Assembly (NCBI GenBank): GCA_037134895.1
Contig: JBAXLI010000006.1
Location: 38,812-102,811 of the forward strand
DNA length: 64,000 bases
Reading direction: 5' to 3'
DNA from: Bacteroidota bacterium
GTDB taxonomy: Bacteria; Bacteroidota; Bacteroidia; Bacteroidales; FEN-979
How positions within the stretch are numbered: position 1 is the first letter of the stretch; every line of letters begins with the position of its first letter. Positions 18,245 to 35,528 of the stretch are shown here, piece after piece. A program made the position numbers and the translations under genes. The notes under the pieces were generated by a model. It was given only the letters and a program-made list of their open reading frames with translations. It was not told where the DNA came from and made no database searches.

Positions 18245-19603
18245 ATGAAGAGAACATTAATTTTCATTGCTGCAATTCTTGTGATTATGAGTGCATGCAA
18301 ACCTAAAACCGAACCGAAAGCAGTTGGCGGGAAAGTGGTGCATCCCGATTGGAGCCGCAACGCCACTATTTATGAGGTGAATGTGAGGCAATACACCCCC
18401 GAAGGTACCTTCAAAGCTCTCCAGCAACATCTTCCCCGCCTGAAAAAGATGGGCGTTGATATACTCTGGCTGATGCCAATTAATCCTATCGGTGAAAAGA
18501 ACCGCAAAGGAAAACTGGGCAGCTACTATGCAGTAAAGGATTACCTGGCAGTCAACCCTGAATACGGTAACATCAGCGATCTGAAAGAGCTTGTTTCCAA
18601 AGCTCATGAACTGGGAATGTACGTAATTGTCGACTGGGTTGCCAACCATACTTCCTGGGACAATGCACTGGTGACCCAGCATCCCGACTGGTATAAAAAA
18701 GACTCAACCGGAAAGATCATCCCACCTGTCGCCGACTGGTCTGATGTTGCAGGCCTGGATTATTCCAATAAGGACCTGAGGAAGTACATGACCGATGCAC
18801 TTTGCTATTGGGTAAAAGAAGCCAATATCGACGGTTACCGTTGTGATGTGGCCGGCATGGTTCCTGTGAACTTCTGGAACGAAGCCGTCCCCCAGGTCAA
18901 AGCCATAAAACCCATCTTTATGCTCGCCGAATGGGAAACACCGGAAATGCACGATTCCGCTTTTGATGCGACCTATTCATGGGATTTGTACAAACTCGCC
19001 AATGACATCGCGGCAGGGAAAAAAACAGCCGACAAGATTGATTCAAACTATGCAGGCGAAACAAAAAAATATTCTCCCGATGCTTACCGGATGAGGTTCA
19101 CTTCGAATCACGATGAAAATTCCTGGAACGGCACCGAATATGAAAGACTTGGTCCCGCCGCTCAGACCTTTGCAGTATTCTGTTTCACATTCCCGGGTTT
19201 CCCCCTCATCTACACCGGGCAGGAATCAGAAATGAAGCGCAGGCTGCGTTTCTTTGACAAGGATACCGTACCCTGGGGAAATTATCCGCTCGAAGGGTTC
19301 TACACTGCTCTCTGTAATCTTAAGAAAACGAACAAAGCCCTGCAGAATGGAGCTGCCGGCGGCCCGCTCGTCAAGATCAGGAACGATAACGAGAAAGTCG
19401 TTTACTCATTCATGAGGGAAAAAGACGGGAATAAAGTCCTGGTAATCCTCAATCTCTCTTCGGCACCATGCAAGGTGAAATTCCCTGAAGGCCTGCCCGC
19501 CGACACCTGGAAATCTCTTTTTGGCAGTGAAAATCTGAACACCGCCAAAGACCTTGTTATGAAACTGAAACCCTGGGAGTATAAAGTGTATACTAAACAG
19601 TAA
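18245..19603 (+). CDS. GH13 alpha-amylase lipoprotein (catalytic domain only)
   Basis: Lipoprotein signal ILVIMSACKP. GH13 regions DWVANHTS, DGYRCDVAGM, LAEWE, FTSNHDEN. Confidence 0.85.
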   Translation: MKRTLIFIAAILVIMSACKPKTEPKAVGGKVVHPDWSRNATIYEVNVRQYTPEGTFKALQQHLPRLKKMGVDILWLMPINPIGEKNRKGKLGSYYAVKDYLAVNPEYGNISDLKELVSKAHELGMYVIVDWVANHTSWDNALVTQHPDWYKKDSTGKIIPPVADWSDVAGLDYSNKDLRKYMTDALCYWVKEANIDGYRCDVAGMVPVNFWNEAVPQVKAIKPIFMLAEWETPEMHDSAFDATYSWDLYKLANDIAAGKKTADKIDSNYAGETKKYSPDAYRMRFTSNHDENSWNGTEYERLGPAAQTFAVFCFTFPGFPLIYTGQESEMKRRLRFFDKDTVPWGNYPLEGFYTALCNLKKTNKALQNGAAGGPLVKIRNDNEKVVYSFMREKDGNKVLVILNLSSAPCKVKFPEGLPADTWKSLFGSENLNTAKDLVMKLKPWEYKVYTKQ

Positions 19604-19641: not shown

Positions 19642-21618
19642 ATGAAAACATATTCTTTACGGGCATCCGTGCTTGCATGGGCCTTGAGTTTGATTATGAT
19701 AACTGCCATTCAATCGAACGCACAGGATAACAATCCTTTTCAAAAGACAAAAAGTATCAGGGAGACTTTTCAGGTCTTGCCTGTTTTCGAAGTCGTACCC
19801 CTTGGCTGGATCAAAGAGCAGATCACCGAAAATCTGCACGGGTTTACCGGCCATCTCGATTCACTGGTACCTGATCTTATACTGGCGGATGACATTTACG
19901 GGAAGAACCGTCGCGGTAAACACGACAAGGCAAAGGACGTGGGAGCGATAACTGAGAACGGCGAACTCCAGGAACAGTTCCTCTGGTGGAACAGTGAGAC
20001 CCAAAGCAACTGGCGCGACGGGTACATACGTTCGGCTATACTTACCGGTGATAAGGAACATCTCAAGCGAGCGGCCGATTATATACAATATATCCTTATG
20101 ACCCAGGATACCGATGGATACCTGGGTATTTATAAAAAAGAACTGCGGTATAAATTTGACAACGAGAACGGCGAATTATGGTCAAAAGCCACCCTGCTCA
20201 GGGGAATGCTGGCCTGGTATGAATTCACGAGGAATTTCACGATCCTGAAATCGGTTGAAACAGCTGTGAAGAATGTGATGAGGGCCTATCCTGCAAATAA
20301 CTCACATCCCTTCTTTTCGGTCAACCCTGATGCCGGTGGCATAACCCACGGGCTCGCCTTTACCGATGTCCTCGAAGAACTATGGAGGATCACCGGCAAG
20401 GAAGAATACAGGGATTACTGTACTTTTCTTTACCAGGATTTCTCTGAGCAGACCCTAAACGAAGACGCCCAATATAAGAAGCTTTGCGATACATCCCTTC
20501 TTCTCAAAGGCCATGGAGCTCATACCTATGAACACCTTCGTTCCGTTGCCTCAGCCTGTTACGCTTCAGGGAACCCAATGCTGACAAAAGCCTTGAAAAA
20601 TTTCCTCTACAAGATCAGCCTGGAATCCAATCCATCGGGCGGCCCTTCAGGCGATGAGTGGGTTGGAGGGAAAAAGGCCGACGCCACCTCGAAAGGATAC
20701 GAATATTGCTCGCTTCATGAACTAATGAACAGCTATGCTTCACTTCTTGCCAAAACAGGCGATGCTGATTTTGGTGAATATTGCGAGAATATCTTCTTCA
20801 ATGCCGCCCAGGGTGCAAGAAATCCCTTTGAGAGTTCCATTGCATACCTGAAGACCGACAACTCCTGGTCAATGTGCGGAGGGCTTAACGGGGACACGAC
20901 CATTAAAACCCAGACCCGTTACAAATATTCACCGGTACACCAGGATGTGGCGGTTTGCTGTGTTCCGAATGCCGGCCGTATTGCCCCTTACTTTGTTCAG
21001 AACATGTGGATGAAGAATGATGAAGGGCTGATCGCAGTGTTGCTGGGGCCTTGTCAGGTTGAAACCACGTTTAAAGGTAAAAGAGTTAATATCGAAGAGC
21101 AAACATCCTATCCTTATGACAATACCCTGGTATTCACGGTGAGCACTTTTGACACTGATTTTGAGTTGAAGATCAGGCGACCTGCCTGGGCCAAACAGAT
21201 CACTGTAAGCGAGGAATATACAGAAGAGAAAGGATATATCGTAATAAAGCGCCATTGGAAAGGTGAACATTCGGTTAGCATTCAGTTTAATCCCCAGCCA
21301 GAACGCAGGCAAGACCTGAACGGGGAATATTACTTCACACACGGAGCTCTTATGCTGGCCCGTCCGGTTGAAAGCATCGGGCTTCAGACAAAGACGTTTC
21401 CTTTAAAAGGCTTCAGGGACATGCATTACAGGCCGGCAAACAGGACTGTATTCGAATACGCAGGGGAAAAGATCAGGCAAACCCGAACCGGCAAGCCCGA
21501 GTTCTCAACTCTTTTATATAATCCAACGTCAGGGAAAAATGAAGCGGTTACCCTTGTCCCTCTGGGGAGGACTATCCTTCGGCAAGCCACGTTCAAACCC
21601 AAATCAGAAGACAACTAA
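19642..21618 (+). CDS. DUF1680/GH127-family glycoside hydrolase-like protein (beta-L-arabinofuranosidase-type fold)
   Basis: Signal peptide. (alpha/alpha)6-barrel-like blocks (WWNSETQSNWRDGYIRSAILTGDKEHLKRAADYIQYILMTQDTDGYLGIY). An E-x-C (GYEYCSLHE) and a Cys-Cys-x-P-N motif (VAVCCVPNAGRIAPYF) match the Zn-binding/nucleophile Cys pattern known from GH127 HypBA1. Confidence 0.55.
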   Translation: MKTYSLRASVLAWALSLIMITAIQSNAQDNNPFQKTKSIRETFQVLPVFEVVPLGWIKEQITENLHGFTGHLDSLVPDLILADDIYGKNRRGKHDKAKDVGAITENGELQEQFLWWNSETQSNWRDGYIRSAILTGDKEHLKRAADYIQYILMTQDTDGYLGIYKKELRYKFDNENGELWSKATLLRGMLAWYEFTRNFTILKSVETAVKNVMRAYPANNSHPFFSVNPDAGGITHGLAFTDVLEELWRITGKEEYRDYCTFLYQDFSEQTLNEDAQYKKLCDTSLLLKGHGAHTYEHLRSVASACYASGNPMLTKALKNFLYKISLESNPSGGPSGDEWVGGKKADATSKGYEYCSLHELMNSYASLLAKTGDADFGEYCENIFFNAAQGARNPFESSIAYLKTDNSWSMCGGLNGDTTIKTQTRYKYSPVHQDVAVCCVPNAGRIAPYFVQNMWMKNDEGLIAVLLGPCQVETTFKGKRVNIEEQTSYPYDNTLVFTVSTFDTDFELKIRRPAWAKQITVSEEYTEEKGYIVIKRHWKGEHSVSIQFNPQPERRQDLNGEYYFTHGALMLARPVESIGLQTKTFPLKGFRDMHYRPANRTVFEYAGEKIRQTRTGKPEFSTLLYNPTSGKNEAVTLVPLGRTILRQATFKPKSEDN

Positions 21619-21619
21619 T

Positions 21620-23476
21620 ATGAGAAAGAAACTATTCATCCTGTTCCTGCTTTGCCAGGCTTCTGTCTTTTCCCAGAATACCAAAACTCCTTTAGACCAG
21701 CCCCCGTCCTGGGCTGCGTCGGCCGTATGGTACCAGATCTTCGTTGAACGTTTCAGCAATGGGGATCAAAAAAATGACCCCGGGATGGAAGACATCAATA
21801 TCCCTCCCCTTCACCAGATCGCGCCCAGAAACTGGTCGGTAACACCCTGGACATTCAACTGGTTTGAGCAGGAGGACTGGGCAAAGGCAACAGGCAAGCC
21901 CTTTATGGACAACCTGCAGTACCGCAGGTTCGGAGGCGACCTCCAGGGCGTGTTGAATAAACTCGATTACCTCAAAGATTTAGGGATCAATGCTCTCTTT
22001 ATAAACCCTTTGAATGACGCCCCCTCGCTTCATAAATACGATGCCCGCAGTTATCATCATATCGATGTTAATTTCGGTCCGGATCCCGTAGGAGATAAAC
22101 GCATGATCGCACTTGAAAACCCCGCTGACCCGGCAACCTGGAAATGGACATCCGCCGACAAATTATTTCTGAAACTTATTGAGGAGGCACATAAAAGGGG
22201 TATCAGGGTAATATTGGATTACTCCTGGAACCACACCGGGGTAATGTTCTGGGCATGGCAGGACATCCTCAAACATCAGTCGGCTTCGGCTTATAAAGAC
22301 TGGTATGACATCATTTCCTTCGACGACCCTTATACCCCTGAGAATGAGTTCAAATACCGCGGATGGGTTGGCATTGAGAGCCTGCCGGAGATAAAAAAGG
22401 TAAATGTAACAGGAAAAAGGGAGAACGGGCATCCTTATGAAGGGGATATCAACCCCGGTGCGAAGCAGCATATTTTTGCAGTCACAAAGCGCTGGCTGGC
22501 TCCTGATGGAGATAACAAGAAAGGAATTGACGGTTTCAGAATGGATGTGGCCGACCAGACAGGGATGATATTCTGGCGCGACTGGAGGAAATTTGTAAGG
22601 TCAATCCAGCCCGACGCCTACCTTATCGGGGAAATATGGTGGGAACAATGGCCCGACGTTCTCATGGATCCGGTGCCGTATACGAGGGGTGATGTGTTTG
22701 ATGCAGTCATGTTCTACCAGGTTTACAGGCCTGCAAGATACTTCTTTGCAAAGACTAAATTCCCCATTGATGCCAGGCAATTCCGCGACAGCATTGAACT
22801 GCAGTGGAACCGTCTGAGGCCCGAGACACGTTTTGCAATGATGAATGTTTCATCATCCCATGATGCCCCGAGGCTTCTCACCGATTTTTACAATACCAAC
22901 AAATATAAATTCAAAGCTCTGCCCCGTGATGATTCGGCATACCGGACCGGGAGACCGGATGCAGATACTTACCGCCGGCTTAAACTATACCTGGTGTGGC
23001 TGTTTACAACTGTCGGGGCTCCCCAGATATGGAACGGGGAAGAGATGGGTATGTGGGGTGAGGATGATCCCGACTGCCGCAAACCTTTATGGTGGAAGGA
23101 ATTCAGTTTTCAGCCTGAAACAAGGAATAACTACCAGCCGGGAAAGAAAGAATATGACTCTGTCGGCTTCAATCAGCAGCAATTCGATCTCTATAAATTG
23201 CTTATCAGGATCAGAAGAGCCAACCCTGTGCTAAACAATGGAAAATTTGAATTCCTTGTGACCGAGGGCCAGAAGCTCGGATTCAGAAGATATAATGAAA
23301 AGGTTGAAATAACTGTATTAATAAATACAGCCTCAGGCGTTCAGAGCTTTTCCCTGCCGGGTTGTAAAAACTGCAAGGACCTGTTAAGCGGTAAAATTTT
23401 CAACGGACCGGTTATTTCCCTGGAACCTTTCACGGCTGTCATATTGCAGGCTCCGGCCACGCAACAGAAGAATTAA
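21620..23476 (+). CDS. periplasmic GH13 alpha-amylase-family enzyme
   Basis: I prefer ATG 21620 (MRKKLFILFLLCQASVFSQ, a clean signal peptide, 1 nt after the upstream stop) over the track start 21539, which overlaps the preceding gene. GH13 regions DYSWNHTG, DGFRMDVADQ, IGEIWWE, SSSHDAPR. Confidence 0.85.
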   Translation: MRKKLFILFLLCQASVFSQNTKTPLDQPPSWAASAVWYQIFVERFSNGDQKNDPGMEDINIPPLHQIAPRNWSVTPWTFNWFEQEDWAKATGKPFMDNLQYRRFGGDLQGVLNKLDYLKDLGINALFINPLNDAPSLHKYDARSYHHIDVNFGPDPVGDKRMIALENPADPATWKWTSADKLFLKLIEEAHKRGIRVILDYSWNHTGVMFWAWQDILKHQSASAYKDWYDIISFDDPYTPENEFKYRGWVGIESLPEIKKVNVTGKRENGHPYEGDINPGAKQHIFAVTKRWLAPDGDNKKGIDGFRMDVADQTGMIFWRDWRKFVRSIQPDAYLIGEIWWEQWPDVLMDPVPYTRGDVFDAVMFYQVYRPARYFFAKTKFPIDARQFRDSIELQWNRLRPETRFAMMNVSSSHDAPRLLTDFYNTNKYKFKALPRDDSAYRTGRPDADTYRRLKLYLVWLFTTVGAPQIWNGEEMGMWGEDDPDCRKPLWWKEFSFQPETRNNYQPGKKEYDSVGFNQQQFDLYKLLIRIRRANPVLNNGKFEFLVTEGQKLGFRRYNEKVEITVLINTASGVQSFSLPGCKNCKDLLSGKIFNGPVISLEPFTAVILQAPATQQKN

Positions 23477-24483: not shown

Positions 24484-25527
24484 TTAGTTCTTAGTCAGTT
24501 TGTATTTATAGACCGGTTTGCTGAGGTCCATAATAATGGTGTAGGTTCCGGCCGAGGGTACAGAAATGTCAAGACCGGCCTCTTTCAGAGTACCTGTATT
24601 TGAACCATCATCACCATAGTTCAAATCCCAGCCAGCATTCGCGCGGAATTTGATTTTGGCAGCAGTGAGGCTGAGTGTAACAGACCAGGTTTTGGCAACT
24701 TCATCATAAGTCATCGGTGAATCTGTATCCCAGCCGCCTGGTGTGGCATCTCCAATTACAGCCCAGGTGGTCAGGAGGAACTTATGAGTAAGGTTTGGAA
24801 GGTCGACATTGAGTTTGTAATACCCCTTGAGACCGGCCTGAATGTCAGCTCCGCCCTTGTTCAGTGTACCATCCTGCCCGTCATCGCCCCAGTTATTGGT
24901 CCAACTGTTACCCTGGCAGTATTTATATTTGCTGTTGTCATCCTTGAACCAGATATACCCTTCGTACTTGCCGTCGGATTTCTTCGAAGCAATAGTTGTA
25001 CTCGAATCAGCAGGGTTCCATCCCTGGTAACTGCCCGGAACAAATAATATCGGGTACACTATTTTCACAAAGTAAGGAGTGATTGTTTGCGGTACCGTCG
25101 GTGAATAGACCGGGGTTACATACTGGTTGATAGTAGTCATAACTCTGAATTCCATGTTGATTGGCTCGGGATTTGCAGGGTCGAACTCCATTGGCAGGAT
25201 CTTCATGTTCAGATCATAGGTTAAAACCGATAAAGTCAAAGCATTATTTACGAGACCAACATTAATGGCATCCTTAAAATTATTGCCTGCCCTGTCCATC
25301 TGGACGGTATATGTAGTTACGAGTGTTTGCCCGAAACTGGAAGCTGTCCAGTTATAAGGAATCATAACTGCAGAGTCGGTCTTTTTAAGAACAATCTGAG
25401 CCCCTCCCGTAAGGCTTAGAACCGAGGGTGTCGGGGGAGAGGCAAGCGTGGCTTTGGTCTCATCCTTTTTGCAGGAAAGGAAACTAACCAGACCAATAAC
25501 CAGGATAAATATTGATATTTTTTTCAT
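24484..25527 (-). CDS. SusE/SusF-like outer-membrane starch-binding lipoprotein
   Basis: Lipoprotein signal LVSFLSCKKD. Immediately downstream of susC/susD. All-beta sequence with repeated W/Y-rich binding-module motifs (PGSYQGWNPAD, WAVIGDATPGGWDTD, KFRANAGWDLNYGDD). Confidence 0.75.
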   Translation of the reverse strand: MKKISIFILVIGLVSFLSCKKDETKATLASPPTPSVLSLTGGAQIVLKKTDSAVMIPYNWTASSFGQTLVTTYTVQMDRAGNNFKDAINVGLVNNALTLSVLTYDLNMKILPMEFDPANPEPINMEFRVMTTINQYVTPVYSPTVPQTITPYFVKIVYPILFVPGSYQGWNPADSSTTIASKKSDGKYEGYIWFKDDNSKYKYCQGNSWTNNWGDDGQDGTLNKGGADIQAGLKGYYKLNVDLPNLTHKFLLTTWAVIGDATPGGWDTDSPMTYDEVAKTWSVTLSLTAAKIKFRANAGWDLNYGDDGSNTGTLKEAGLDISVPSAGTYTIIMDLSKPVYKYKLTKN

Positions 25528-25547: not shown

Positions 25548-27749
25548 TTAATATCCGGGATTTTGTTTAAGGTTTGGATTTGCAGAAACATCGGATGATG
25601 GTATCGGGAACAGGTTATATGTTGCGGGTACAGCAACGCCATTTTTATCGGCGCCTTTCCACGGCCATACATAAGTACCTGACGAGAACCTGCCAAAGCG
25701 GATAAGGTCGGTTCTGCGCTGGCATTCCCAGTATAGTTCACGGCCTCTTTCATCAATGATATAATCAAGGTTCAGCTGATCTGCAGTAATGTCTCCAAAC
25801 TGGTCACCGTATGCCCTTTCACGAAGTGCGTTAACGAGTTCAAGAGCCTTTGCGGAACTTCCACCGCCACCGCCCCTGAGGACTGCCTCGGCATACATCA
25901 GATATATATCAGCCAATCTGAAGAGCGGGAAGTCGGTGTCCATATAATTAGGATCCGATCCGCTGGCACCTGTACTGGTGAGGTTCTTGAATTTGGTTAC
26001 AGCGTAACCATCAGTGAACACACCAATGTCCTTGATCTCGAGATTCTGACCATTGGTATAGAACATCGGTCTCCTGTCGTAGCTGTTCCTGACAATTGTA
26101 TATGTGTAATCCGGAGCGCCCAGCTTCATTGTTACAACATAAGAGCCTGCTTCAGGGATATTAATATTTGCTCCGCCTTGTTCCAGAATACCATCGGCCG
26201 GAGCGTCATCGCCATAATTCAGATCCCAGTTACCGTTTGCCCTGAACTTCAGTCCGCCGGCAGTAAGGTCCATTGTAGCTCTCCATGTTTTAGTCGCAGT
26301 ATCATAAGACATTGGCGTATCTGAATCCCATTTTCCAGGGGTTGCATCTCCGATTACTGCCCAGGTAGTCTTGAGGATAGTAAAGGTGAGTGCAGCAGTA
26401 TCGCAATTAATCTTATAATAGCCCGGATCGGTGACTTTAATGTTATCGCCTCCATGTTTAAGGGTTCCGTTTCCTCCGTCTCCCCAGTTAACAGCCCAGC
26501 CTCCGTTGGCTGCGAACTTGAACTGAACTCCGGCATCATTAAAATACAGATAGCCTTCATACTTGCTGTTACTACCAACTGATGCTACAACATTGACCTG
26601 ATCGGCAGGGTTCCAGCCCTGGTAACTTCCCGGACAGGAAAGTATCGGATAAACAGCTGACTTTTTGGGCGGAACTGGTGAATGATATAATCCATAGGCA
26701 AGATTCGGATAGAACAATTTCACCAGGTTCTTGGTTGTGCGGGTTCCTCCCCATTTGGCTGAAGTACCGTAATCAGCAGGTGTCATACTGCCACCAATTG
26801 AAGCGGCAATAATAAAAGTGGTTCCGCCATAGGTACGGGTGCGTACGCCGTCATACTCAATCGGGAAGATGATCTCATTGCTGCTATGGTTGTCGGCGAG
26901 GAAAAGATCCGCATAGATCGGTTCCAGGGTATAACCTGCAGTGAGGATGTTGTTGCAATAGGTAAGACACTCGGTATACTTGGGTGTACCAATGTACACT
27001 TCTGCATTCAGGTATAGTTTTGAAAGCAAAGTCCAGACAGCCCCTTTGTCGGCACGGCCGTATTCATTGCCACGTGCGGATATCATCACTGGTTCAATGG
27101 ACAGAAGCTCACTTTCAATATAATTAAAGAGATCTGCACGCTTTATCTGAGGAGGGAAGAACTTTCCGGGAATATCATTCTCGGTTACAAACGGCACATT
27201 GCCGAAGAGATCAAGAGCATGATAATAGCTCAAAGCCCTCAGGAAACGTGCTTCTGCGCGGAAAGCCTGAACATTGGCTTTATCCTGCCCGGTAATGCCC
27301 CTCTCGTCGAGTTTGCTGTCCTGTGATTCACGGATGAACTCGTTGCAAAGGCTAACCTGGTAAAATATCCTGTAATACATGGCTGCGATGAAAATATCGC
27401 CTGAACCCCAGGTCTGATAATGAAAATTCCAGATGGTCTGGTCGTTCCAGCTGATGATAGCTTCATCGGTTGTGAGTTCCTGGTGGTACCAGAAACCGCG
27501 TAAGTATTCGCCAAACCCTTCGTCAATCCCGCTGATATCGGGATTTCCTGCTGGGCCCTGCTGGCCGGATACAGAAAGGCCTGCATAGCATTTTGCCAGA
27601 ACCTGCTTGTAACCCTGTGCAGTTGTGTAAGCATTTGCAGGGGTAATTGAAGTAGGATTAATAGGCGTGGTATTCAAATCCTTGACGCAGGATCCAAGAA
27701 ACAGCGCTAAGGCTGTTACCATGAATGTTATTTTTAATATTCTTTTCAT
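25548..27749 (-). CDS. SusD-like (RagB/SusD family) lipoprotein carrying an internal SusE/F-type binding-module insertion
   Basis: I prefer the start at 27749 (MKRILKITFMVTALALFLGSC, a lipoprotein signal) over the track start 27788. SusD N-terminal TPR-like region (AYTTAQGYKQVLAKCYAGL...RFLRALSYYHALDLFGNVPF) and C-terminal region (FPLFRLADIYLMYAEAVLRG...IDERGRELYWECQRRTDLIRFGRF) are present. They are separated by ~200 aa homologous to the adjacent SusE/F-like protein. Confidence 0.85.
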   Translation of the reverse strand: MKRILKITFMVTALALFLGSCVKDLNTTPINPTSITPANAYTTAQGYKQVLAKCYAGLSVSGQQGPAGNPDISGIDEGFGEYLRGFWYHQELTTDEAIISWNDQTIWNFHYQTWGSGDIFIAAMYYRIFYQVSLCNEFIRESQDSKLDERGITGQDKANVQAFRAEARFLRALSYYHALDLFGNVPFVTENDIPGKFFPPQIKRADLFNYIESELLSIEPVMISARGNEYGRADKGAVWTLLSKLYLNAEVYIGTPKYTECLTYCNNILTAGYTLEPIYADLFLADNHSSNEIIFPIEYDGVRTRTYGGTTFIIAASIGGSMTPADYGTSAKWGGTRTTKNLVKLFYPNLAYGLYHSPVPPKKSAVYPILSCPGSYQGWNPADQVNVVASVGSNSKYEGYLYFNDAGVQFKFAANGGWAVNWGDGGNGTLKHGGDNIKVTDPGYYKINCDTAALTFTILKTTWAVIGDATPGKWDSDTPMSYDTATKTWRATMDLTAGGLKFRANGNWDLNYGDDAPADGILEQGGANINIPEAGSYVVTMKLGAPDYTYTIVRNSYDRRPMFYTNGQNLEIKDIGVFTDGYAVTKFKNLTSTGASGSDPNYMDTDFPLFRLADIYLMYAEAVLRGGGGGSSAKALELVNALRERAYGDQFGDITADQLNLDYIIDERGRELYWECQRRTDLIRFGRFSSGTYVWPWKGADKNGVAVPATYNLFPIPSSDVSANPNLKQNPGY

Positions 27750-27768
27750 CTTTCTAAAAATTTTAGCG

Positions 27769-30744
27769 TTACAACGACATATTAACACCTAATACAAACA
27801 CCCTCGACCTGGGATACATATTGTTGTCAATTCCCATTGAAGAACCGAGATTGACTTCAGGATCAAGACCCTTGTACTTTGTAATTGTGAACACATTGTT
27901 AACAGTGAATGAAACTCTGACATTCAGCTTATCACCGATAACAGTTCCGAAATCATAAGCGAGGGACAGGAAGTCGAGTTTGAAGAACGAAGCGTTCTGT
28001 ACGTAGTAATCTGACAGATACTGCTGGTTATTGAAATTTGTATTTGAAACGGATGAAGCGACGTTACTCAGGTAAGGTCCTTCAGGACGGAAGATATTTG
28101 CATAAACTCCCCTGTTTGCTTCAACGTTATTATACATATAGTTCCCCACATTGGCATGTCCGCTGGCTGCCAGTGACCATTTTTTATATGAAAGCCTGGT
28201 GTTTATACCGAAGGTATATATAGGATTCGGGCTCTTGTAACAATACCTGTCGGCATCGTTGATTTTACCGTCTCCGTTCCTGTCAACATATAACCCTTCT
28301 ACCGGGCTGCCGTTGGCATCGTACACCTGCTGGTATACATAGAATGAATTGGCCGGATTGCCTACCCTTTGTATCTGTACGGTATTACCAACACCCCCGC
28401 TGATACCTCCAACCATGACTCCAGGATAATTCGGGTCATCTGAAATGTTAAGCTTGGTGATTTCGTTCTTATAATAGGTGGCATTGAAACCGATATCCCA
28501 GATCCAGTTCTTGTTCACGATGGGCTTGGCATCAATCATAAACTCAAAGCCTGAATACTTCATGCTGCCTACATTAGTCCATACATAATTGGAAAGGTTC
28601 GTACCTGCAGGCACAGGGATGAAGTTGATCATATCCGCTGTTGATTTGTAAAAATAGTCAGCTGAAGCAGTGATCCTGTCTTTGAGGAAACCAAGGTCCA
28701 GACCGACATTCCATGTAGTCTGTGTCTCCCACTTGATATTGGGATCGTACGCATCCGGACGAAGAGTGACATACCACATGTTTCCAAACTGGTACATTGA
28801 AAACCTGTCACTTGCTGTATAAATTGGCAGGTAAGGATACCAGTTTGCCCCTATGTCCTGCTGACCTGTTTGTCCCCAGCCAAGTCTTAGTTTCAGAAGT
28901 GAAACTGCCTTGTTATCCCTCAGGAATTTTTCGTCGCTGATCTTCCAGCCTAAAGCAACCGAGGGAAATAAACCCCAGCGTGTACTCTTTGAGAACCTGG
29001 AAGAACCGTCGTCACGAAGAGTAGCTGTTAACAAGTACCTGTTAAAAAGGGTATAGTTGAAACGTCCGTAAAAAGATACAAGATAATTTTCCTGTTTTAC
29101 GATGATGGTATTGGCGTGGGCAGAATCATGAGGTACATTATTGTTGTAACTGTTGTTGTTCACCCAGAAATGCTGCCATGAATAACCTGCCATGACATCA
29201 AATTTGCTGGCAATACTCTTCACGTCCTTTACATAATTCAGGTAAAAATCGAGAAGAGTGTTTTTCTTTTGTTGATCATAAGTGTTATCCTGGCCTTTGT
29301 TCGTGTATTGCCATGTAGCATATGTGGGAACATAATTTGATCCCTTGCTCCATGAATAATCCATACCCAGGTTAAGGTTAACTCTCAGGTCAGGCAAAAA
29401 ATGCAGTTTATAATCAAACGTTGCATTGCCAAGGAACCTGTTTACACGGGATGTGTTATTGGTGAGATTTAATCTTGCAACAGGGTTTGTGGTTGCCTGA
29501 CCTACAGGCTGGCCGTTTGGCTGAAGCCATGCCCAATAATCAAAATAAGAGTTATTGGCAAGAACCGGCTGTGTGGGGTCGAAAGCGATAGCGTCTCCGA
29601 TTGCAGCCTGGTCAGCAAACCTGTTCTTTTCGAACATATACTTTGCATTGATCCCGATTTTGAGATAATTCTTGAAGAATGTCGGGTTCAGGGTTACACC
29701 TACCGAAGTCCTCTGCATATTGTCGGTATGGATCGTTCCATTCTGGTTATAATAGCCTACTGATACACGGTAAGGCATTGTGCTCACTGCTCCGGTCAGC
29801 GCAAGGTTCTGATCTGTCCCTGAAGCTGAATTGAAGATCTGCTTCTGCCAGTTGGTATTTGCATCGCCAAGCAGAGTATCAACATCCGGGCGGTTAGGAT
29901 ATCTCTGTTTTACGAGAGCTCTGAAATCATCGCCTGTAAGAACGCCGATAGTTTTGGGAACCGTGTAAATCGACACATTGCCCGAATATTCAAGACCGAT
30001 CTTCTTTGAACCGGCAACTCCTTTCTTTGTAGTGATGATGATAACCCCGTTGGATGCCCGTGAACCGTAGATGGCGGTTGCTGATGCATCCTTCAGAATA
30101 GTATAGGTTTCAATATCATCAGGGTTTAACATACCCAATGTTCCGCGGGCACCTGAAGTGGAGGCGTTGTCAATGGCAACCCCGTCAACAACAAGTAAAG
30201 GATCATTATTGGCATTGATGGATGAACCACCCCTGATACGGATGATAGCATCACCACCAGGAGCACCACCGGTCGTTGTAACCTGAACACCGGCAATTTT
30301 CCCTATGATCAACTGCTGTGGCGATGAAATAGCTCCCTGGTTAAAATCTTTTTTGTCAAGAGCGGCAACGGCACCGGTAGCATCCTGCTTTTTAACCGAA
30401 CCGTAACCAATTACAACAACTTCATTGAGACTTTTTGTCCCAACTGATAAAGATACATCCAGAGTCTGTTTCTCAGCTACCGTTATTTCCTGTGTCTCAT
30501 AACCGACATAGGAATAAACAAGTACTGCACCTTTCTTTACTTTCAGGGAGTATTTCCCGTCCATGTCGGTAACAGTGCCCGTCGTTGTTGATTTAACTAC
30601 GATCGTTACCCCGGGGAGCAAGGTCCCATCTGTCGCATCTGTTACTTTACCTGATACCGTAAACTCCTGGGCGTAAGCCATCGAGGCTGTTGCCAGGGAG
30701 AAGAAAAGAATCAGATAACGCAACCAAAGTACACGTTTCTTCAT
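27769..30744 (-). CDS. SusC-like TonB-dependent outer-membrane transporter
   Basis: Signal peptide. Carboxypeptidase-regulatory-like domain (VSGKVTDATDGTLLPGVTIVVKSTTTGTVTDMDGKYSL). Plug domain (VVVIGYGSVKKQDATGAV...GAPGGDAIIRIRGGSS). A ~800-aa beta-barrel. Paired with the susD-like gene 20 nt downstream. Confidence 0.92.
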   Translation of the reverse strand: MKKRVLWLRYLILFFSLATASMAYAQEFTVSGKVTDATDGTLLPGVTIVVKSTTTGTVTDMDGKYSLKVKKGAVLVYSYVGYETQEITVAEKQTLDVSLSVGTKSLNEVVVIGYGSVKKQDATGAVAALDKKDFNQGAISSPQQLIIGKIAGVQVTTTGGAPGGDAIIRIRGGSSINANNDPLLVVDGVAIDNASTSGARGTLGMLNPDDIETYTILKDASATAIYGSRASNGVIIITTKKGVAGSKKIGLEYSGNVSIYTVPKTIGVLTGDDFRALVKQRYPNRPDVDTLLGDANTNWQKQIFNSASGTDQNLALTGAVSTMPYRVSVGYYNQNGTIHTDNMQRTSVGVTLNPTFFKNYLKIGINAKYMFEKNRFADQAAIGDAIAFDPTQPVLANNSYFDYWAWLQPNGQPVGQATTNPVARLNLTNNTSRVNRFLGNATFDYKLHFLPDLRVNLNLGMDYSWSKGSNYVPTYATWQYTNKGQDNTYDQQKKNTLLDFYLNYVKDVKSIASKFDVMAGYSWQHFWVNNNSYNNNVPHDSAHANTIIVKQENYLVSFYGRFNYTLFNRYLLTATLRDDGSSRFSKSTRWGLFPSVALGWKISDEKFLRDNKAVSLLKLRLGWGQTGQQDIGANWYPYLPIYTASDRFSMYQFGNMWYVTLRPDAYDPNIKWETQTTWNVGLDLGFLKDRITASADYFYKSTADMINFIPVPAGTNLSNYVWTNVGSMKYSGFEFMIDAKPIVNKNWIWDIGFNATYYKNEITKLNISDDPNYPGVMVGGISGGVGNTVQIQRVGNPANSFYVYQQVYDANGSPVEGLYVDRNGDGKINDADRYCYKSPNPIYTFGINTRLSYKKWSLAASGHANVGNYMYNNVEANRGVYANIFRPEGPYLSNVASSVSNTNFNNQQYLSDYYVQNASFFKLDFLSLAYDFGTVIGDKLNVRVSFTVNNVFTITKYKGLDPEVNLGSSMGIDNNMYPRSRVFVLGVNMSL

Positions 30745-30977
30745 AGAGTTAATTTTAAATTGTTTGTTATTCCGTTAATTGATTTTATACCTAGTTAATA
30801 TGTAATTATGGTATTTGAATGCAGAATTAAGAAAAAAATGGTTACGGTCATCCTTTTTTTCACAAAAAATGATAAAAAATTCAAAATATCAATTTAGACT
30901 AAAACTAAATTACGGATATCAACTGCAATAGTAAGTGTATTAAGCTAAACAAGAGACCGGAATTGATGTGCATATGT

Positions 30978-30985
30978 TAACTTTG
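30978..30985 (+). promoter_or_regulatory. candidate -7 box TAACTTTG (TAnnTTTG)
   Basis: Exact consensus match 21 nt upstream of ATG 31006, in a 260-bp AT-rich divergent region between susC and the 947-aa GH13 gene. Confidence 0.4.
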
Positions 30986-31005
30986 CAATCAGCAATATAG
31001 ATTTT

Positions 31006-33849
31006 ATGAAAACTTTAAAGATATTTCTTTCTGTTATGGTGATGTGCTTTCTGAATCTAACCTCAGTTCATGCCCAGACAGTGGTAACTGTTCCTCTTTA
31101 TCCCACCGACCTGGACTCATGCACCATCTTGTTTGATGCCAGCAAAGGCAGTGCAGGGCTTATGAATACAACACCTCCCATTTACGCTCATACAGGCGTG
31201 ATCACCAACCTGAGTACATCCACAACAGACTGGAAGTATGTGATCGCAGGATGGGGAGAAAATACGCCCAAGGCGATGATGACACCCCTGGGCAATAACA
31301 TGTACCAGCTTAAACTGAAACCCAGCATCAGGGTATTTTACGGAGTACCTGCCGGTGAGACGATCCTTAAACTCGCCTTTGTGTTCAGGAACTCCGACGG
31401 TTCAAAAACAGGAAAGGAAGCAGACGGGAGCGATATTTTCGCCAATGTGTACCCTGCTAAAACCAGCGTCACAATAAATCTTCCCGCCAACAAAAACCTC
31501 TACCTGAACCAGTTGAGCAGCATCCCCGTGAATGCAACAGGCCCGCTTGCCGACAGCATGAAGTTATTTGTTAACGGGACCCTTATGAAAGCAGTAGCCG
31601 GCAAAATTCTTGAAGATACGGTTTACGCAAACAATTTCGGACAAAACTGGGTGAAACGCTGGGTAAAAATCATTGCCAAGAACGATACAGCGTCTGCAGC
31701 CGATTCCTTCTGTTATACTGTGATCACAGCTCCTGTTACTGCAGATCTCCCTGCTGGAATAAAGCCCGGTATCAATTATGCCGATTCAACCACCACCGTT
31801 TTATGCCTGTATGCCCCGGGCAAACAAAATTGCTTTGCAATCGGCGACTTCAGCAACTGGGACCAGGATTCATTGCACTACATGTACAAGACTCCCGATA
31901 ACAACTACTTCTGGATACAGCTGAACAACCTCGTTCCCCGCAGAGAATACATCTTCCAGTATCTTGTCGACGGCAACCTGAAGATCGGGGATCCTTTCTG
32001 TGACAAAGTAAGCGACCCCAACGACCAGTATATACCGGCAGCCTCCTACCCTGATCTTATCCCTTACCCTGCAGGAAAAACAACCGGCATCGCCAGCGTC
32101 CTTCAGACCGCACAGGTCCCCTATTCCTGGGCATCGTCACCTTTCACCCCTCCTGCAACAGCCGACCTTGTTGTATATGAACTCCTGGTCAGGGATTTTA
32201 CGGATGCACGCACTTTCACTGCCGTGATCGACACACTGAATTACCTGAGGAACCTTGGCATCAATGCCATTGAACTGATGCCTGTAATGGAATTCGAGGG
32301 CAACATCAGCTGGGGATACAATCCCGATTTTTCCTTCGCCGTCGACAAATACTACGGCCCCAAGAATACACTCAAACAGCTCATCGATGCTGCACATTCA
32401 AAAGGGATTGCAATTATCCTCGATATCGTCTGCAATCACCATTTTGGCTCCTCCCCTCTTGTAAGGCTTTACTGGGATGACCAGTACCAGAGGCCTGCTG
32501 CGGATAATCCTTGGTTCAACCCCATCCCAAAGCATCCTTATAATGTGGGATATGATTTCAACCACAACTCACCTGCCACACGTTCCTATATGCTCCGGCT
32601 TCTGAAATACTGGCTGCAGGAATACCATATTGACGGATACAGGTTTGACCTCTCCAAAGGATTTACCCAGGTCAATTCCTACCCTGACAATGTCAGCCTC
32701 TGGGGGCAGTATGACCAGAACCGTATTAACATCCTTAACATCTATGCCGACACCGTCAAGGCTGTAAATCCATCAGCATATTTTATCCTTGAGCACTTTG
32801 CCGATAACAGCGAGGAAAAAGTCCTTGCCAATGACGGAATGATGCTGTGGGGGAACGGAAACAATAATTATAACAGCGCCTCCGGCGGATGGACAAGCGG
32901 CGGTGCTTCCGACCTGAACTGGGGTTCTTACAAGAACCGGGGCTGGGACCAGCCCAATATCATGTGGTATATGGAAAGCCATGATGAAGAGCGCCAGATG
33001 TTCAAGGATTACAGCGCAGGCAATGCAAGCAAACCTCCCTACAATCCCAAGGACACCGCAACAGCTCTTCAGCGCGGGGCCTTATGCGCAAACTTCTTCT
33101 TTACCATACCCGGGCCCAAACTGATATGGGAATTCGGAGAGCTGGGATACGATTACTCCATCAATTATCCCACCGGCACCTCTGCCTCCCGCCTTGATCC
33201 GAAACCGGTCCGCTGGAACTATTATTCACAGTGGGGAAGAAAATATCTTTTCAATGTGTATCACTCGCTTATTGAACTGAAGAAAACCCTGCCGGCATTT
33301 AAAACAACCTCATTTACTGTCGACCTGTCCTCTGCCATAAAACGCATAGCACTTACCGATCCCTCTATGGATGCAGTAGTCCTCGGGAACTTCGACGTGG
33401 TTGCCAGGAGCATAGTCCCGAACTTTACAAAAACCGGGACCTGGTACGAGTTTTACACAGGAGATTCACTTTCTGTATCAGACGTCGCTTCTGCTCTTGC
33501 CTTTACCCCTGGCGAATACAGGTTGTATACCACGACCCGTCTGCCAAAACCAGTATTTACAGGCATCAGCGAAACTCTGCCCGGAAGACCTGTATGCCAG
33601 CTCAGGGTTTTCCCTAACCCATCTGACGGACCTGTTACTTTTGAAGTGACATGCACTTCGGCGGTCAGCGCGAAACTCTTAATTTTCGACCTCAGCGGAA
33701 GAATGGAGGGTAACGTTTTTGAAGGCAGGCTCGGGCAGGGCATACATGAACTCAAGTGGGGTTCAGCCCCGGGACTTAAACCCGGCCTCTACTTTTTCAG
33801 GCTTATATCATCTGAGGGGAATACCACCGGCAAATTCATAATACTATAG
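31006..33849 (+). CDS. T9SS-secreted multidomain GH13 alpha-amylase-family enzyme
   Basis: Signal peptide. About 380 aa of N-terminal beta-sandwich domains. GH13 regions DIVCNHHF, DGYRFDLSKG, ILEHFA, MESHDEER. C-terminal T9SS sorting domain (RVFPNPSDGPVTFEV...LLIFDLSGRM...GLYFFRLISSEGNTTGKFIIL). Confidence 0.85.
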   Translation: MKTLKIFLSVMVMCFLNLTSVHAQTVVTVPLYPTDLDSCTILFDASKGSAGLMNTTPPIYAHTGVITNLSTSTTDWKYVIAGWGENTPKAMMTPLGNNMYQLKLKPSIRVFYGVPAGETILKLAFVFRNSDGSKTGKEADGSDIFANVYPAKTSVTINLPANKNLYLNQLSSIPVNATGPLADSMKLFVNGTLMKAVAGKILEDTVYANNFGQNWVKRWVKIIAKNDTASAADSFCYTVITAPVTADLPAGIKPGINYADSTTTVLCLYAPGKQNCFAIGDFSNWDQDSLHYMYKTPDNNYFWIQLNNLVPRREYIFQYLVDGNLKIGDPFCDKVSDPNDQYIPAASYPDLIPYPAGKTTGIASVLQTAQVPYSWASSPFTPPATADLVVYELLVRDFTDARTFTAVIDTLNYLRNLGINAIELMPVMEFEGNISWGYNPDFSFAVDKYYGPKNTLKQLIDAAHSKGIAIILDIVCNHHFGSSPLVRLYWDDQYQRPAADNPWFNPIPKHPYNVGYDFNHNSPATRSYMLRLLKYWLQEYHIDGYRFDLSKGFTQVNSYPDNVSLWGQYDQNRINILNIYADTVKAVNPSAYFILEHFADNSEEKVLANDGMMLWGNGNNNYNSASGGWTSGGASDLNWGSYKNRGWDQPNIMWYMESHDEERQMFKDYSAGNASKPPYNPKDTATALQRGALCANFFFTIPGPKLIWEFGELGYDYSINYPTGTSASRLDPKPVRWNYYSQWGRKYLFNVYHSLIELKKTLPAFKTTSFTVDLSSAIKRIALTDPSMDAVVLGNFDVVARSIVPNFTKTGTWYEFYTGDSLSVSDVASALAFTPGEYRLYTTTRLPKPVFTGISETLPGRPVCQLRVFPNPSDGPVTFEVTCTSAVSAKLLIFDLSGRMEGNVFEGRLGQGIHELKWGSAPGLKPGLYFFRLISSEGNTTGKFIIL

Positions 33850-33932
33850 AATTCTTAAACCGGCCTGCGCACTAAAAGGCTGCCGCAAGCGTTAATTTTT
33901 TATCTTTGCAACGCAATCCGGCATTACCTGAA

Positions 33933-35528
33933 ATGAAAAAACCGTTTTTAATTCTCTTCTCTGCACTGGTCCTGGCATTATCCCTGTTGAATTGCCCGAA
34001 AGCAACTGCAGCGACTGACACAGTTTTTGTGTTATCCCTGGAGGTCAATATGACCAAAGCTATACAAACCGGCATTTTCGACCCTTCCCTCGACAGACTG
34101 TATGTCGTGTTCGACAGTCTTCTTGGTGTGGAGCAGCTGGTCAATTCAGGGCATAACAAGTTTACACTTCTTCTTTCTGATGGCATTGATTCCGGAGCCG
34201 TTTACAACTTCCACTTCCAGATCAATGATTTCATTACCGAAACCCTCAGCCGTCAGATTAAGATACAACATGGTATCAATTCTTATAAATACTGGTGGAA
34301 TAACGATTACCTGAATTACTCCTGGTTCCAGGTCGATATGAGCTATATGGTACAGCAGCATGTATTCAGGCCCGATACTGATTATGTGGATATGGTTGGC
34401 AGCATGAACAACTTCCAGGGGTCACCGCAATTCACAAGGATTGGAACAACTTACGTATACCAGACTATGTACAACCTCGACCCGGGGACTACTTCAGCAT
34501 TCAAATTCAGGATCAACGGGGATTCGAACAAGGTTGAGCTGAAAGGCAAACCCAGCAGGTTTTTCCTTGCCCCCGACAGTGTCATCCACATGCTTTACTG
34601 GTTTAACAATTACAATACAGCAAAGATTCCCATGCAGTTTTACTGCGATATGAGTTATATGACCAGAGCCGGCCACTTCAACAGGCAGTACGATCATGTG
34701 GATGTTGCCGGTTCATTTAACGACGCAGGGGCGTATGATATCCTGTACGATTACGACAAAGACAGTATTTATACCGCCACTGTCCTGATCGACACGAGCT
34801 ACATCCGCCAAAACCCGATAACTTTCAAATACCGCATCAACAGTTCATGGTTAACTGCCGAACTCGAGGGGAAGCCTTTCCGAACCTATATCCTGCACGA
34901 CACGGCCCAGGGCCCCGATATTGACACTTCCTGGTACAATAACTGGAACCCTGCGATTCCCACTCCCCCGATCGTTTCAAATGTGGCAATCCAGGGCAGG
35001 TATATTTTCAACCAGGTGATCACAGGGATTTACTCTTATGAGAACATCAACGGCATCCCGGAAGGAAAAAGCACATATCAATGGTACCGAAGCGCCGATT
35101 CACTGGGAACCACGCTGACGCCTATTGATACAGCCATACATATTACTTATACAATCGACACGAACAGCATTCATCAATGGCTTGTTTTCGAAGTCACTCC
35201 GATTGCCGTAAGCGGTGATTCAGCGATTGGCAAACCTGTCAGAGTCGTCACTCAAACATCCATTGGCTACACCGGGATTGACGACAAAGACAATCTGATC
35301 TCGCTGGTTTATCCTAACCCATGCAACGACAGGCTTCTGATCGAAGGGCGAGCTGATATCCGCAGAGTAGAATTATATGACCTGACGGGACGGCTGGTCT
35401 TCATATCCGACGGGATCAACTCGAGGAAAACCCTTATAAACCCAAGCGCACTATTGCCTGGTGTTTACATTCTCAAAGCCAGCGGAAAAAACAACGAGAA
35501 CGGCTGGAACAGGATTGTAAGACAATAA
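33933..35528 (+). CDS. T9SS-secreted protein with repeated beta-sandwich (putative carbohydrate-binding) modules
   Basis: I prefer the start at 33933 (MKKPFLILFSALVLALSLLNC). Three related modules are present (YNFHFQINDF..., FKFRINGDSNKVELKGKPSRFF, ITFKYRINSSWLTAELEGKPFRTY). T9SS CTD: LVYPNPCNDRLLIEG...VELYDLTGRLV...GVYILKASG. No catalytic motif recognised. Confidence 0.6.
   Translation: MKKPFLILFSALVLALSLLNCPKATAATDTVFVLSLEVNMTKAIQTGIFDPSLDRLYVVFDSLLGVEQLVNSGHNKFTLLLSDGIDSGAVYNFHFQINDFITETLSRQIKIQHGINSYKYWWNNDYLNYSWFQVDMSYMVQQHVFRPDTDYVDMVGSMNNFQGSPQFTRIGTTYVYQTMYNLDPGTTSAFKFRINGDSNKVELKGKPSRFFLAPDSVIHMLYWFNNYNTAKIPMQFYCDMSYMTRAGHFNRQYDHVDVAGSFNDAGAYDILYDYDKDSIYTATVLIDTSYIRQNPITFKYRINSSWLTAELEGKPFRTYILHDTAQGPDIDTSWYNNWNPAIPTPPIVSNVAIQGRYIFNQVITGIYSYENINGIPEGKSTYQWYRSADSLGTTLTPIDTAIHITYTIDTNSIHQWLVFEVTPIAVSGDSAIGKPVRVVTQTSIGYTGIDDKDNLISLVYPNPCNDRLLIEGRADIRRVELYDLTGRLVFISDGINSRKTLINPSALLPGVYILKASGKNNENGWNRIVRQ

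Follow-up and report, generated by a model that had tools for sequence, protein, structure and literature searches.

A SusD homologue with a predicted tandem of SusE/F-type X25 modules in a loop of its scaffold

We analyzed a 64,000-nucleotide (nt) stretch of DNA from a Bacteroidota bacterium (assembly GCA_037134895.1, contig JBAXLI010000006.1, positions 38,812 to 102,811 of the forward strand), called the window below. On the minus strand, at 25548-27749, the window encodes a SusD homologue, here named SusD-X25x2. The ATG at 27749 yields a protein of 733 amino acids (aa), the length given in an earlier note made from the sequence alone. Its database entry is MEI6883516.1 ("RagB/SusD family"), which derives from a metagenome-assembled genome (MAG) of the Bacteroidota. 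Between two SusD-matching segments it carries an insert of ~209 aa (residues 347-555), and profile searches and structure models support the assignment of this insert to tandem SusE/F-type X25 modules. We consider it likely that SusD-X25x2 is a transporter lid with an X25 cassette captured in a surface loop, where the cassette adds tethered starch-binding sites.

The domain boundaries were mapped with hidden Markov models (HMMs), as the earlier note had proposed. In Pfam, SusD_RagB (PF07980) covers residues 578-733 with 124.6 bits (cutoff 23.1), SusD-like_3 covers residues 101-247 with 24.3 bits, just below its cutoff of 27, and SusF_SusE (PF16411) matches between the two. SusD_RagB and SusF_SusE are thus present in one open reading frame (ORF). 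Both flanks are ordinary SusD sequence, as had been stated. Against 3JYS, a member of the SusD superfamily from B. vulgatus (E=3e-112), residues 39-346 and 557-733 align to chain residues 3-304 and 318-499. Against B. thetaiotaomicron SusD (BtSusD, 3CK7, E=6e-84), residues 30-350 and 553-733 align to 2-313 and 351-526. The insert replaces a 14-residue loop of 3JYS and a 38-residue loop of BtSusD. In the closest insert-less relatives (P0122 and P0124, 58-60% identical), F346 and S555/Y556 are bridged by 8-10 residues, showing that the boundaries of the insert are clean. The host loop lies ~14 residues past the binding-site residue W333. The SusD chain here is a loop-rich, poorly conserved region between the N-terminal tetratricopeptide repeats (TPRs) and TPR4 (PMC2954216). 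Residues 337-375 of BtSusD are mentioned neither in the BT_3984 paper nor in a 2026 SusCD cryo-EM preprint, and this placement is a general one only.

The insert (minus strand throughout) begins with a Pro/Lys-rich entry linker at 26655-26711 (residues 347-365, YPNLAYGLYHSPVPPKKSA), in which the model confidence (pLDDT) is lowered. It is followed by two X25/SusE/F-type modules. Module 1 (26367-26654, residues 366-461) is a predicted beta-sandwich with W379, K411, W418 and a G-D-N436-I motif; module 2 (26085-26366, residues 462-555) matches Pfam SusF_SusE and contains W474, K501, W508, N505, N511 and N528. Used alone, the insert scores 55.3 bits with PF16411 (cutoff 27.5) in two stretches, and module 1 is borderline for X25_BaPul_like (PF22058; 26.9 bits, cutoff 27). 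The earlier note had called the ~200-aa middle segment non-SusD and SusE/F-type, and had seen by eye that about half of its positions are identical, colinearly, to the C-terminal ~190 aa of the neighboring SusE-like protein. The Pfam score and the fold matches below agree with the former. For the latter, BLASTP aligned SusD residues 366-555 to SusE-like residues 157-347 with 53% identity over 191 aa and a single gap (E=1e-67).

Independent folding of the middle segment had been named as a point on which the claim could fail. A model of the insert alone (pLDDT 91.8, pTM 0.84) shows two beta-sandwich modules. When this model was compared with PDB structures by Foldseek, the only significant matches were 7RPY (Sca5 X25-2, E=8.7e-6) and 4FE9 (BtSusF, E=2.4e-4), the latter covering both modules (TMq 0.53, root-mean-square deviation [rmsd] 5.6 Å over 216 columns). 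Weaker matches were AmyP-SBD and a Bacillus pullulanase, and no SusD chain was among the matches. A phmmer search of the PDB sequences with the insert found neither SusE nor SusF and gave only marginal matches to FmlD, Sca5 and an amylase; the link to SusF and X25 thus needed the fold search. The insert has no lipobox and no N-terminal SusE domain (PF14292) and starts at the first X25 module, which argues that a cassette of carbohydrate-binding modules (CBMs) was captured and not a whole SusE/F protein.

The insert leaves the SusD fold intact, as judged from the superposition of the scaffold on 3JYS and BtSusD. A full-length AlphaFold2 model based on 50 homologues (pLDDT 85.3, pTM 0.81) consists of a helical SusD scaffold and two all-beta modules at residues ~366-461 and 463-554. 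Foldseek with the whole model retrieved 3JYS with E=2.9e-37 and a target-normalized TM of 0.89, and BtSusD with a TM of 0.82; the matches were SusD chains only, and this search is uninformative on the insert. The N-terminal part of the scaffold (26712-27686, minus strand, residues 22-346) comprises TPR helices and the canonical starch-site residues. The C-terminal part (25548-26084, minus strand, residues 556-733 plus stop codon) comprises the SusD_RagB match and the TPR4 helices (residues 612-647). With the NCBIfam model NF033071, an "exception" model for BtSusD whose cutoff is 725 bits, the protein scores 440.7 bits, its match being divided in two by the insert. By its sequence, the scaffold belongs to the starch-SusD lineage, but with a score below this cutoff it is a relative and not the equivalog of BtSusD.

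In BtSusD, residues W98, N101 and W320 are essential to starch binding (PMC4173775), and these residues together with R81 and D73 touch maltoheptaose at the SusC-SusD interface (2026 SusCD cryo-EM preprint). BtSusD D73, R81, W98, N101, Y296 and W320 align to D76, R84, W101, D103, Y307 and W333 of SusD-X25x2. Except for Y307, these residues are invariant among the 50 homologues, and the canonical SusD starch site is predicted to be intact.

Each module of the insert also carries a putative binding platform. In Sca5 X25, the ligand is contacted by W620, K654, W661, N684 and N687, and SusF shares this site (PMC9112005). The stretch FKFAANGGW of module 1 aligns to FKFAANDDW of Sca5, placing K411 and W418 on K654 and W661. 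Module 2 repeats the motif as KFRANGNW (K501 and W508). Upstream, each module has a Trp at a similar distance (W379 and W474), and downstream an Asn in a G-(D/A)-N-I context (N436 in module 1 and N528 in module 2). W379, W418, W474, W508, K411 and K501 are invariant in the 50 homologues and in the SusE-like paralogue. The majority-residue frequency is 0.73 in the modules, 0.78-0.80 in the scaffold and 0.51 in the linker. Modules conserved nearly as well as the scaffold, together with a variable linker, fit selection on folded, ligand-binding modules. A platform of two Trp residues with Lys and Asn thus appears to be kept in each module.

According to the mechanism that we propose, SusD-X25x2 would be the lid lipoprotein of a SusC/SusD outer-membrane importer for alpha-glucan; its family membership leads us to infer that the scaffold covers the SusC barrel as a lid, and it is plausible that the insert is borne on this lid over the barrel. 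A two-module X25 cassette, as found in the C-terminal halves of SusE/SusF-like proteins, would have been taken as a unit into a variable surface loop. The capture is ancient, and the cassette has been inherited mostly with the scaffold. The polypeptide would then most likely offer three alpha-glucan sites, the canonical one and two added ones. The added sites may raise the avidity for polymeric glucan and retain captured chains at the mouth of the transporter, so that sites which B. thetaiotaomicron supplies in trans via SusE and SusF, themselves loosely attached to SusCD, would be provided here in cis. The analysis itself shows the architecture, fold, homology, residue conservation, distribution and age; glucan binding by the insert, the independence of the added sites and the orientation of the insert to SusC are what we infer.

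Instead of offering two sites, the modules could close into a single four-tryptophan "clamshell" for long helical alpha-glucan, as in R. bromii Sas20d2/Sca5X25-2. Sca5X25-2 gives the best Foldseek E-value, is itself a tandem and holds one ligand between its lobes, which do not bind alone. In addition, the pTM of the insert model (0.84) suggests a fixed arrangement of the two modules, and the tandem has to start and end in one and the same SusD loop. However, the insert as a whole superposes poorly on Sca5X25-2 (TMq 0.31, rmsd 14 Å). Two consecutive SusF modules, which bind independently, fit better (see the 4FE9 match above), and natural variants whose loop holds one or three modules (see below) argue for modules that work singly. 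The SusF superposition and the single-module variants lead us to favor independent sites, and we regard a clamshell as rather unlikely.

It is improbable, in our view, that the insert has mainly a structural or docking role, be it as a spacer on the lid or as a platform recruiting a surface amylase or the SusE-like protein. The invariant residues are exactly those at the ligand-platform positions (W, K, W and N in each module), for which a pure spacer would have no need. The modules are also conserved in the neighboring SusE-like protein, which belongs to a family defined by starch binding. On the other side, isolated Sca5X25-2a and 2b modules do not bind, and in solved utilisomes SusE-like surface glycan-binding proteins (SGBPs) and enzymes dock on SusCD. 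The 2026 SusCD cryo-EM preprint contrasts the starch system with the levan and dextran utilisomes: SusCD purifies without SusE, SusF or SusG, and few docking points for lipoproteins are seen on SusC. A built-in adaptor could be useful in such a system. The same report lends some interest to the reading of added binding sites: covalent fusion is one way to guarantee their proximity to the transporter.

The insert and the tandem of the neighboring SusE-like gene are old relatives. Aligned by codons, they are 58.8% identical in DNA; no exact run exceeds 11 nt, and the identity at third codon positions of conserved residues is 0.48. The codon alignment contains no DNA conversion tract. Two similar DNA strings quoted in the earlier note are both present, at 26344 and 24746. 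That the two genes are paralogous, as the note had claimed, holds in the sense of homology (53% aa identity, E=1e-67) and fails as a recent local duplication: in 26 of 26 genomes having both genes, the nearest relative of the insert is the insert of another genome.

A recent local duplication, or ongoing gene conversion from the neighboring susE-like gene, is therefore very improbable. The two genes lie side by side on one strand with colinear homology, and the identity between insert and neighbor is higher within genomes (mean 50.5%) than between genomes (43.4%). This 7-point excess is, however, expected from shared species history. In the 26 genomes, the insert's own neighbor is often not even its best SusE-like match. 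In a neighbor-joining (NJ) tree, the inserts form approximately one group separate from the SusE-like tandems, the exceptions being a three-module insert (L046) and a SusD fragment (L051) that was labeled "E" by a length rule. Sub-groups of the inserts run parallel to those of the SusE-like tandems, indicating co-divergence. The low third-position identity and the lack of a long identical tract point in the same direction.

The cassette is not carried by every close relative. Identities of insert and scaffold co-vary (Spearman 0.66). A tree of the scaffold only mixes tandem-bearing with insert-less proteins; in each of 50 bootstrap replicates, at least 10 were misplaced. Insert-less proteins with up to 68% identity in the N-terminal scaffold (residues 1-346 of the query) have a loop of 5-12 residues, and no remnant of the cassette was found in this loop. 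Such close insert-less SusDs among the tandem carriers indicate repeated clean loss or transfer of the cassette. The sequence comparisons point to a single, ancient capture in which both modules came together from a SusE/F-like protein. The simplest history would be one gain and several clean losses, with modules duplicated or lost on occasion; the cassette could also have been transferred by recombination. In the scaffold tree, which set loci L049-L080 against the tandem carriers, the PULs (polysaccharide utilization loci) of the insert-less SusDs still encode a SusE-like protein with tandem X25.

The architecture is widespread. In a search of 5.8 billion proteins (NCBI, JGI, ENA and Logan assemblies), at least 120 clusters at the 90% identity level, 723-748 aa long, match SusD-X25x2 over 100% of the query at 60-76% identity. 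This search for insert-bearing SusDs of more than 700 aa, suggested in the earlier note, thus revealed a family and not a singleton. At 50% clustering, the tandem form is a single cluster (P0073). Close relatives of 589-710 aa break off at the same query position. In GTDB contigs (one genome per species), the tandem occupies this position in the SusD of ~47 of the 80 best loci. The carriers include Bacteroidales MAGs, Prolixibacteraceae, Draconibacterium, Lentimicrobium, Saprospiraceae/Lewinellaceae and the cultured Neolewinella aurantiaca SSH13. Among them are complete or near-complete genomes (Ca. Sulfidibacterium, 3.27 Mb, and one 5.38-Mb contig).

The earlier note had named an assembly chimera of susD and susE/F as a possible refutation, and recurrence in independent assemblies rules this out. 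The insert is homologous to the adjacent gene, a type of repeat that can mislead assemblers. Yet the same in-frame architecture, with the same boundaries, is found in at least 160 distinct proteins from independent assemblies, including a cultured isolate. At 59% DNA identity and without an exact run longer than 11 nt, the two sequences are too divergent to collapse, and base composition (GC) is uniform across the susD region. That a read chimera or a frameshifted fusion at 26.1-26.7 kb created the gene is hardly credible.

To count modules at this loop, module HMMs were run on 321 related SusDs. The tandem (module-1 type followed by module-2 type) was present in 168 and no X25-type module in 146. 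A module-1 type alone was found in three proteins, including one from an Aliifodinibius MAG, and a module-2 type alone in another three, including Polaribacter and Lutibacter MAGs. One protein of 853 aa from a Prolixibacteraceae MAG has the order 1-2-2. Pfam confirmed the single- and triple-module forms, and the single-module protein P0121 passes both PF16411 and PF22058. In the triple-module SusD (L046:5962-8523, JAFGGF010000101.1), SusF_SusE matches in three stretches with 84 bits, and its insert lies outside the main insert clade of the NJ tree. The single-module SusDs are 621-635 aa long (L060:5953-7842, Polaribacter; L074:5995-7860, Lutibacter; L065:5965-7866, Aliifodinibius). Of the proteins P0121, P0123 and P0231, some have a module-1-like and others a module-2-like module. 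Their scaffolds do not cluster with the tandem carriers, and they may have arisen by reduction of a tandem or by separate capture.

Four further relatives of the starch SusD type (P0125, P0127, P0151 and P0153; 615-710 aa) have inserts of 86-201 aa at the same junction, which match no X25 module HMM and no Pfam family. These may be other cassettes in the same slot. The SusE/F-like neighbors vary as well, with two X25 modules (~345 aa, as in the window), three (~430 aa, SusF-like) or four or more (590 aa, L035:8323-10095); such variation is also seen in L060, L074, L077, L078 and L079. Thus, module number is plastic in helper proteins and lid alike. A tandem-bearing Neolewinella locus contains a second SusD-like ORF downstream of the SusE-like gene (L031:8877-10454; 525 aa, insert-less). 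This ORF has no SusC directly ahead and is distant from its tandem-bearing neighbor on the scaffold tree.

A bolder proposal, which we put forward tentatively and hold to be rather doubtful, is that lids of the starch SusD type have a general "expansion slot" in the loop after the W333 helix, where glycan-binding cassettes are repeatedly gained, lost, duplicated or swapped (from none to three X25 modules, or the 86-201-aa inserts above), and that the lid-borne tandem alters pedal-bin transport. If so, the arm could grip a long alpha-glucan through opening and closing of the lid, resulting in hand-over-hand feeding of the polymer to the transporter or to an enzyme. Stable docking of separate SusE/F proteins, apparently absent in starch systems, would then be unnecessary.

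Several observations weigh against a lid with added starch-binding sites, captured once. A profile of the insert family, compared with PDB sequences, matches only the dextran-binding BT3088 SGBPdex (E=3.7e-5). Since this sole profile match is a dextran binder, specificity within the alpha-glucans is not established. The residue equivalence to solved X25 sites comes from one marginal alignment (E=0.03) together with fold similarity and motif spacing. In the canonical SusD site, position 307 is Tyr here and Trp in most homologues, and N101 of BtSusD is matched by an Asp (D103). On the tree of 190 columns, the single insert clade is weakly bootstrapped, and a perfect split of inserts and SusE-like tandems was recovered in 0 of 100 replicates, a value affected by the L051 fragment and the L046 outlier; for the single capture we lean on the nearest-neighbor test. 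Finally, compatibility of the insert with closure of the lid is assumed from conservation alone.

The start of susD differs between gene callers. The mechanical ORF (25548-27788, 746 aa) has a GTG start and overlaps the susC stop codon, the inner ATG at 27749 gives 733 aa, and a database representative has 724 aa (start variants in the window at 27749-27788, minus strand; proteins P0001 and P0270-P0274). The 733-aa form, also annotated in MEI6883516.1, is the only one with a signal peptide of standard length ahead of the lipobox Cys. The lipoprotein signal peptide and lipobox (27687-27749, minus strand) comprise residues 1-21 and end in LGSC. From this N-terminus (MKRILKITFMVTALALFLGSC, lipobox Cys C21), a lipoprotein is predicted. 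C21, K23, D24 and L25 are invariant among the 50 homologues, a pattern that we take to be consistent with a surface-lipoprotein export motif.

The start codon of susD is located ~20 nt (19-nt gap) downstream of the stop codon of susC on the same strand. susC (27769-30744, minus strand, 991 aa) encodes a SusC/RagA TonB-dependent transporter with CarboxypepD_reg, Plug and barrel domains (TIGR04056, 771 bits, cutoff 368). On the other side of susD, the SusE-like surface lipoprotein (24484-25527, minus strand, 347 aa) consists of PF14292 (residues 21-129) followed by the tandem X25 (24487-25059, minus strand, residues 157-347; 53% aa and 58.8% nt identity to the insert).

On the plus strand, the window contains genes for a glycoside hydrolase (GH) of family 13 with a CBM48-like module (15850-18237), a GH13 enzyme with a SusG-like C-terminus (18245-19603), a GH127-like protein with signal peptide, catalytic and middle domains (19642-21618), and a further GH13 enzyme (21617-23476). 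The mechanical ORF of the last (21539-23476, plus strand) shares 80 nt with the end of the GH127-like gene; its true start is probably the internal ATG at 21617, which opens a signal peptide (MRKKLFILFLL...). GH127 is a beta-L-arabinofuranosidase family and an odd companion in a starch-type polysaccharide utilization locus (PUL). Divergent from susC lies a gene for a large GH13 enzyme (31006-33849, plus strand, 947 aa) with an N-terminal DUF4961 domain. The AT-rich gap of 260 bp between the two (30745-31005, GC ~0.36) is likely a shared promoter or regulatory region. The next gene (33906-35528, plus strand, 540 aa) encodes a protein with Por_Secre_tail, a sorting domain of the type IX secretion system (T9SS), and by eye the C-terminus of the 947-aa GH13 enzyme also resembles a T9SS tail. 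This suggests that the GH13 enzymes may be exported by T9SS and not lipid-anchored like SusG. An esterase gene is also present. With its susC-susD-susE-like core and four GH13 genes, the locus is predicted to be a PUL for alpha-glucan (starch, glycogen or pullulan).

The components thus have known counterparts. SusD-X25x2 shares with BtSusD (BT3701; 3CK7-3CKC) and 3JYS the fold, the two-block match and the canonical site, and it shares the setting of a lipoprotein encoded directly after susC in a GH13-rich locus. Those proteins, however, are single-domain lids of ~500-550 aa with a loop of 14-38 residues, where SusD-X25x2 has 209 residues and two extra domains. With SusE and SusF (4FEM and 4FE9) the insert shares the module family PF16411 and, as in the C-terminal part of SusE, the tandem arrangement. 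Yet SusE and SusF are lipoproteins in their own right that act in trans, each with a lipobox and, at the N-terminus, a SusE/Ig-like domain; here the modules lie inside the SusD polypeptide. R. bromii Sca5/Sas20d2 (7RPY) has the FKFAAN..W motif in common with the insert and the best structural E-value, but it is a Gram-positive amylosome scaffoldin with a single clamshell site, and its global arrangement differs.

The nearest architectural precedent is the alpha-amylase SusG, in which CBM58 is inserted in a loop of domain B without disrupting it (as cited in PMC11267923). There, too, a starch-binding module is placed in a loop of another domain, but the host is a GH13 enzyme and not a transporter lid, and the module is single and of another CBM family. 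The levan and dextran utilisomes (SusC2D2 with SGBP and enzyme; 9SJI and 9SJE) likewise have SGBP-type modules at the transporter. In these complexes, a separate lipoprotein is docked noncovalently on SusC, in contrast to a covalent fusion in SusD, which would move with the lid.

The architecture itself was not found described. The earlier note knew of no characterized SusD of this kind, and we found none: an SusE/F-type module is absent from all 22 SusD-family sequences in the PDB, and neither a full-text literature search, outside of which most subscription journals fall, nor a 2026 review of glycoside transporters describes a SusD with embedded SusE/F-type modules. Precomputed Pfam annotations do display the architecture, which has apparently remained unremarked in the databases. 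Its components and likely function are familiar. The current label of these proteins is simply "RagB/SusD family", and they could be misinterpreted by filters on length or by PUL predictors that work on domains.

SusC/SusD pairs are the defining glycan-foraging machinery of Bacteroidota. In the solved or characterized cases that we found, SusD is a single-domain lid, and extra binding comes from separate lipoproteins. SusD-X25x2 indicates that the split of roles between SusD (SGBP-A) and SusE/F (SGBP-B) is not fixed. The family offers a natural experiment on how binding sites tethered to a moving lid affect glycan capture and uptake, and its permissive loop could be used for engineering SusD specificity. 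Close relatives carry the cassette patchily, which suggests that alpha-glucan acquisition is tuned rapidly and in a modular way in environmental lineages, among them sediment and wastewater Bacteroidales and the Saprospiraceae.

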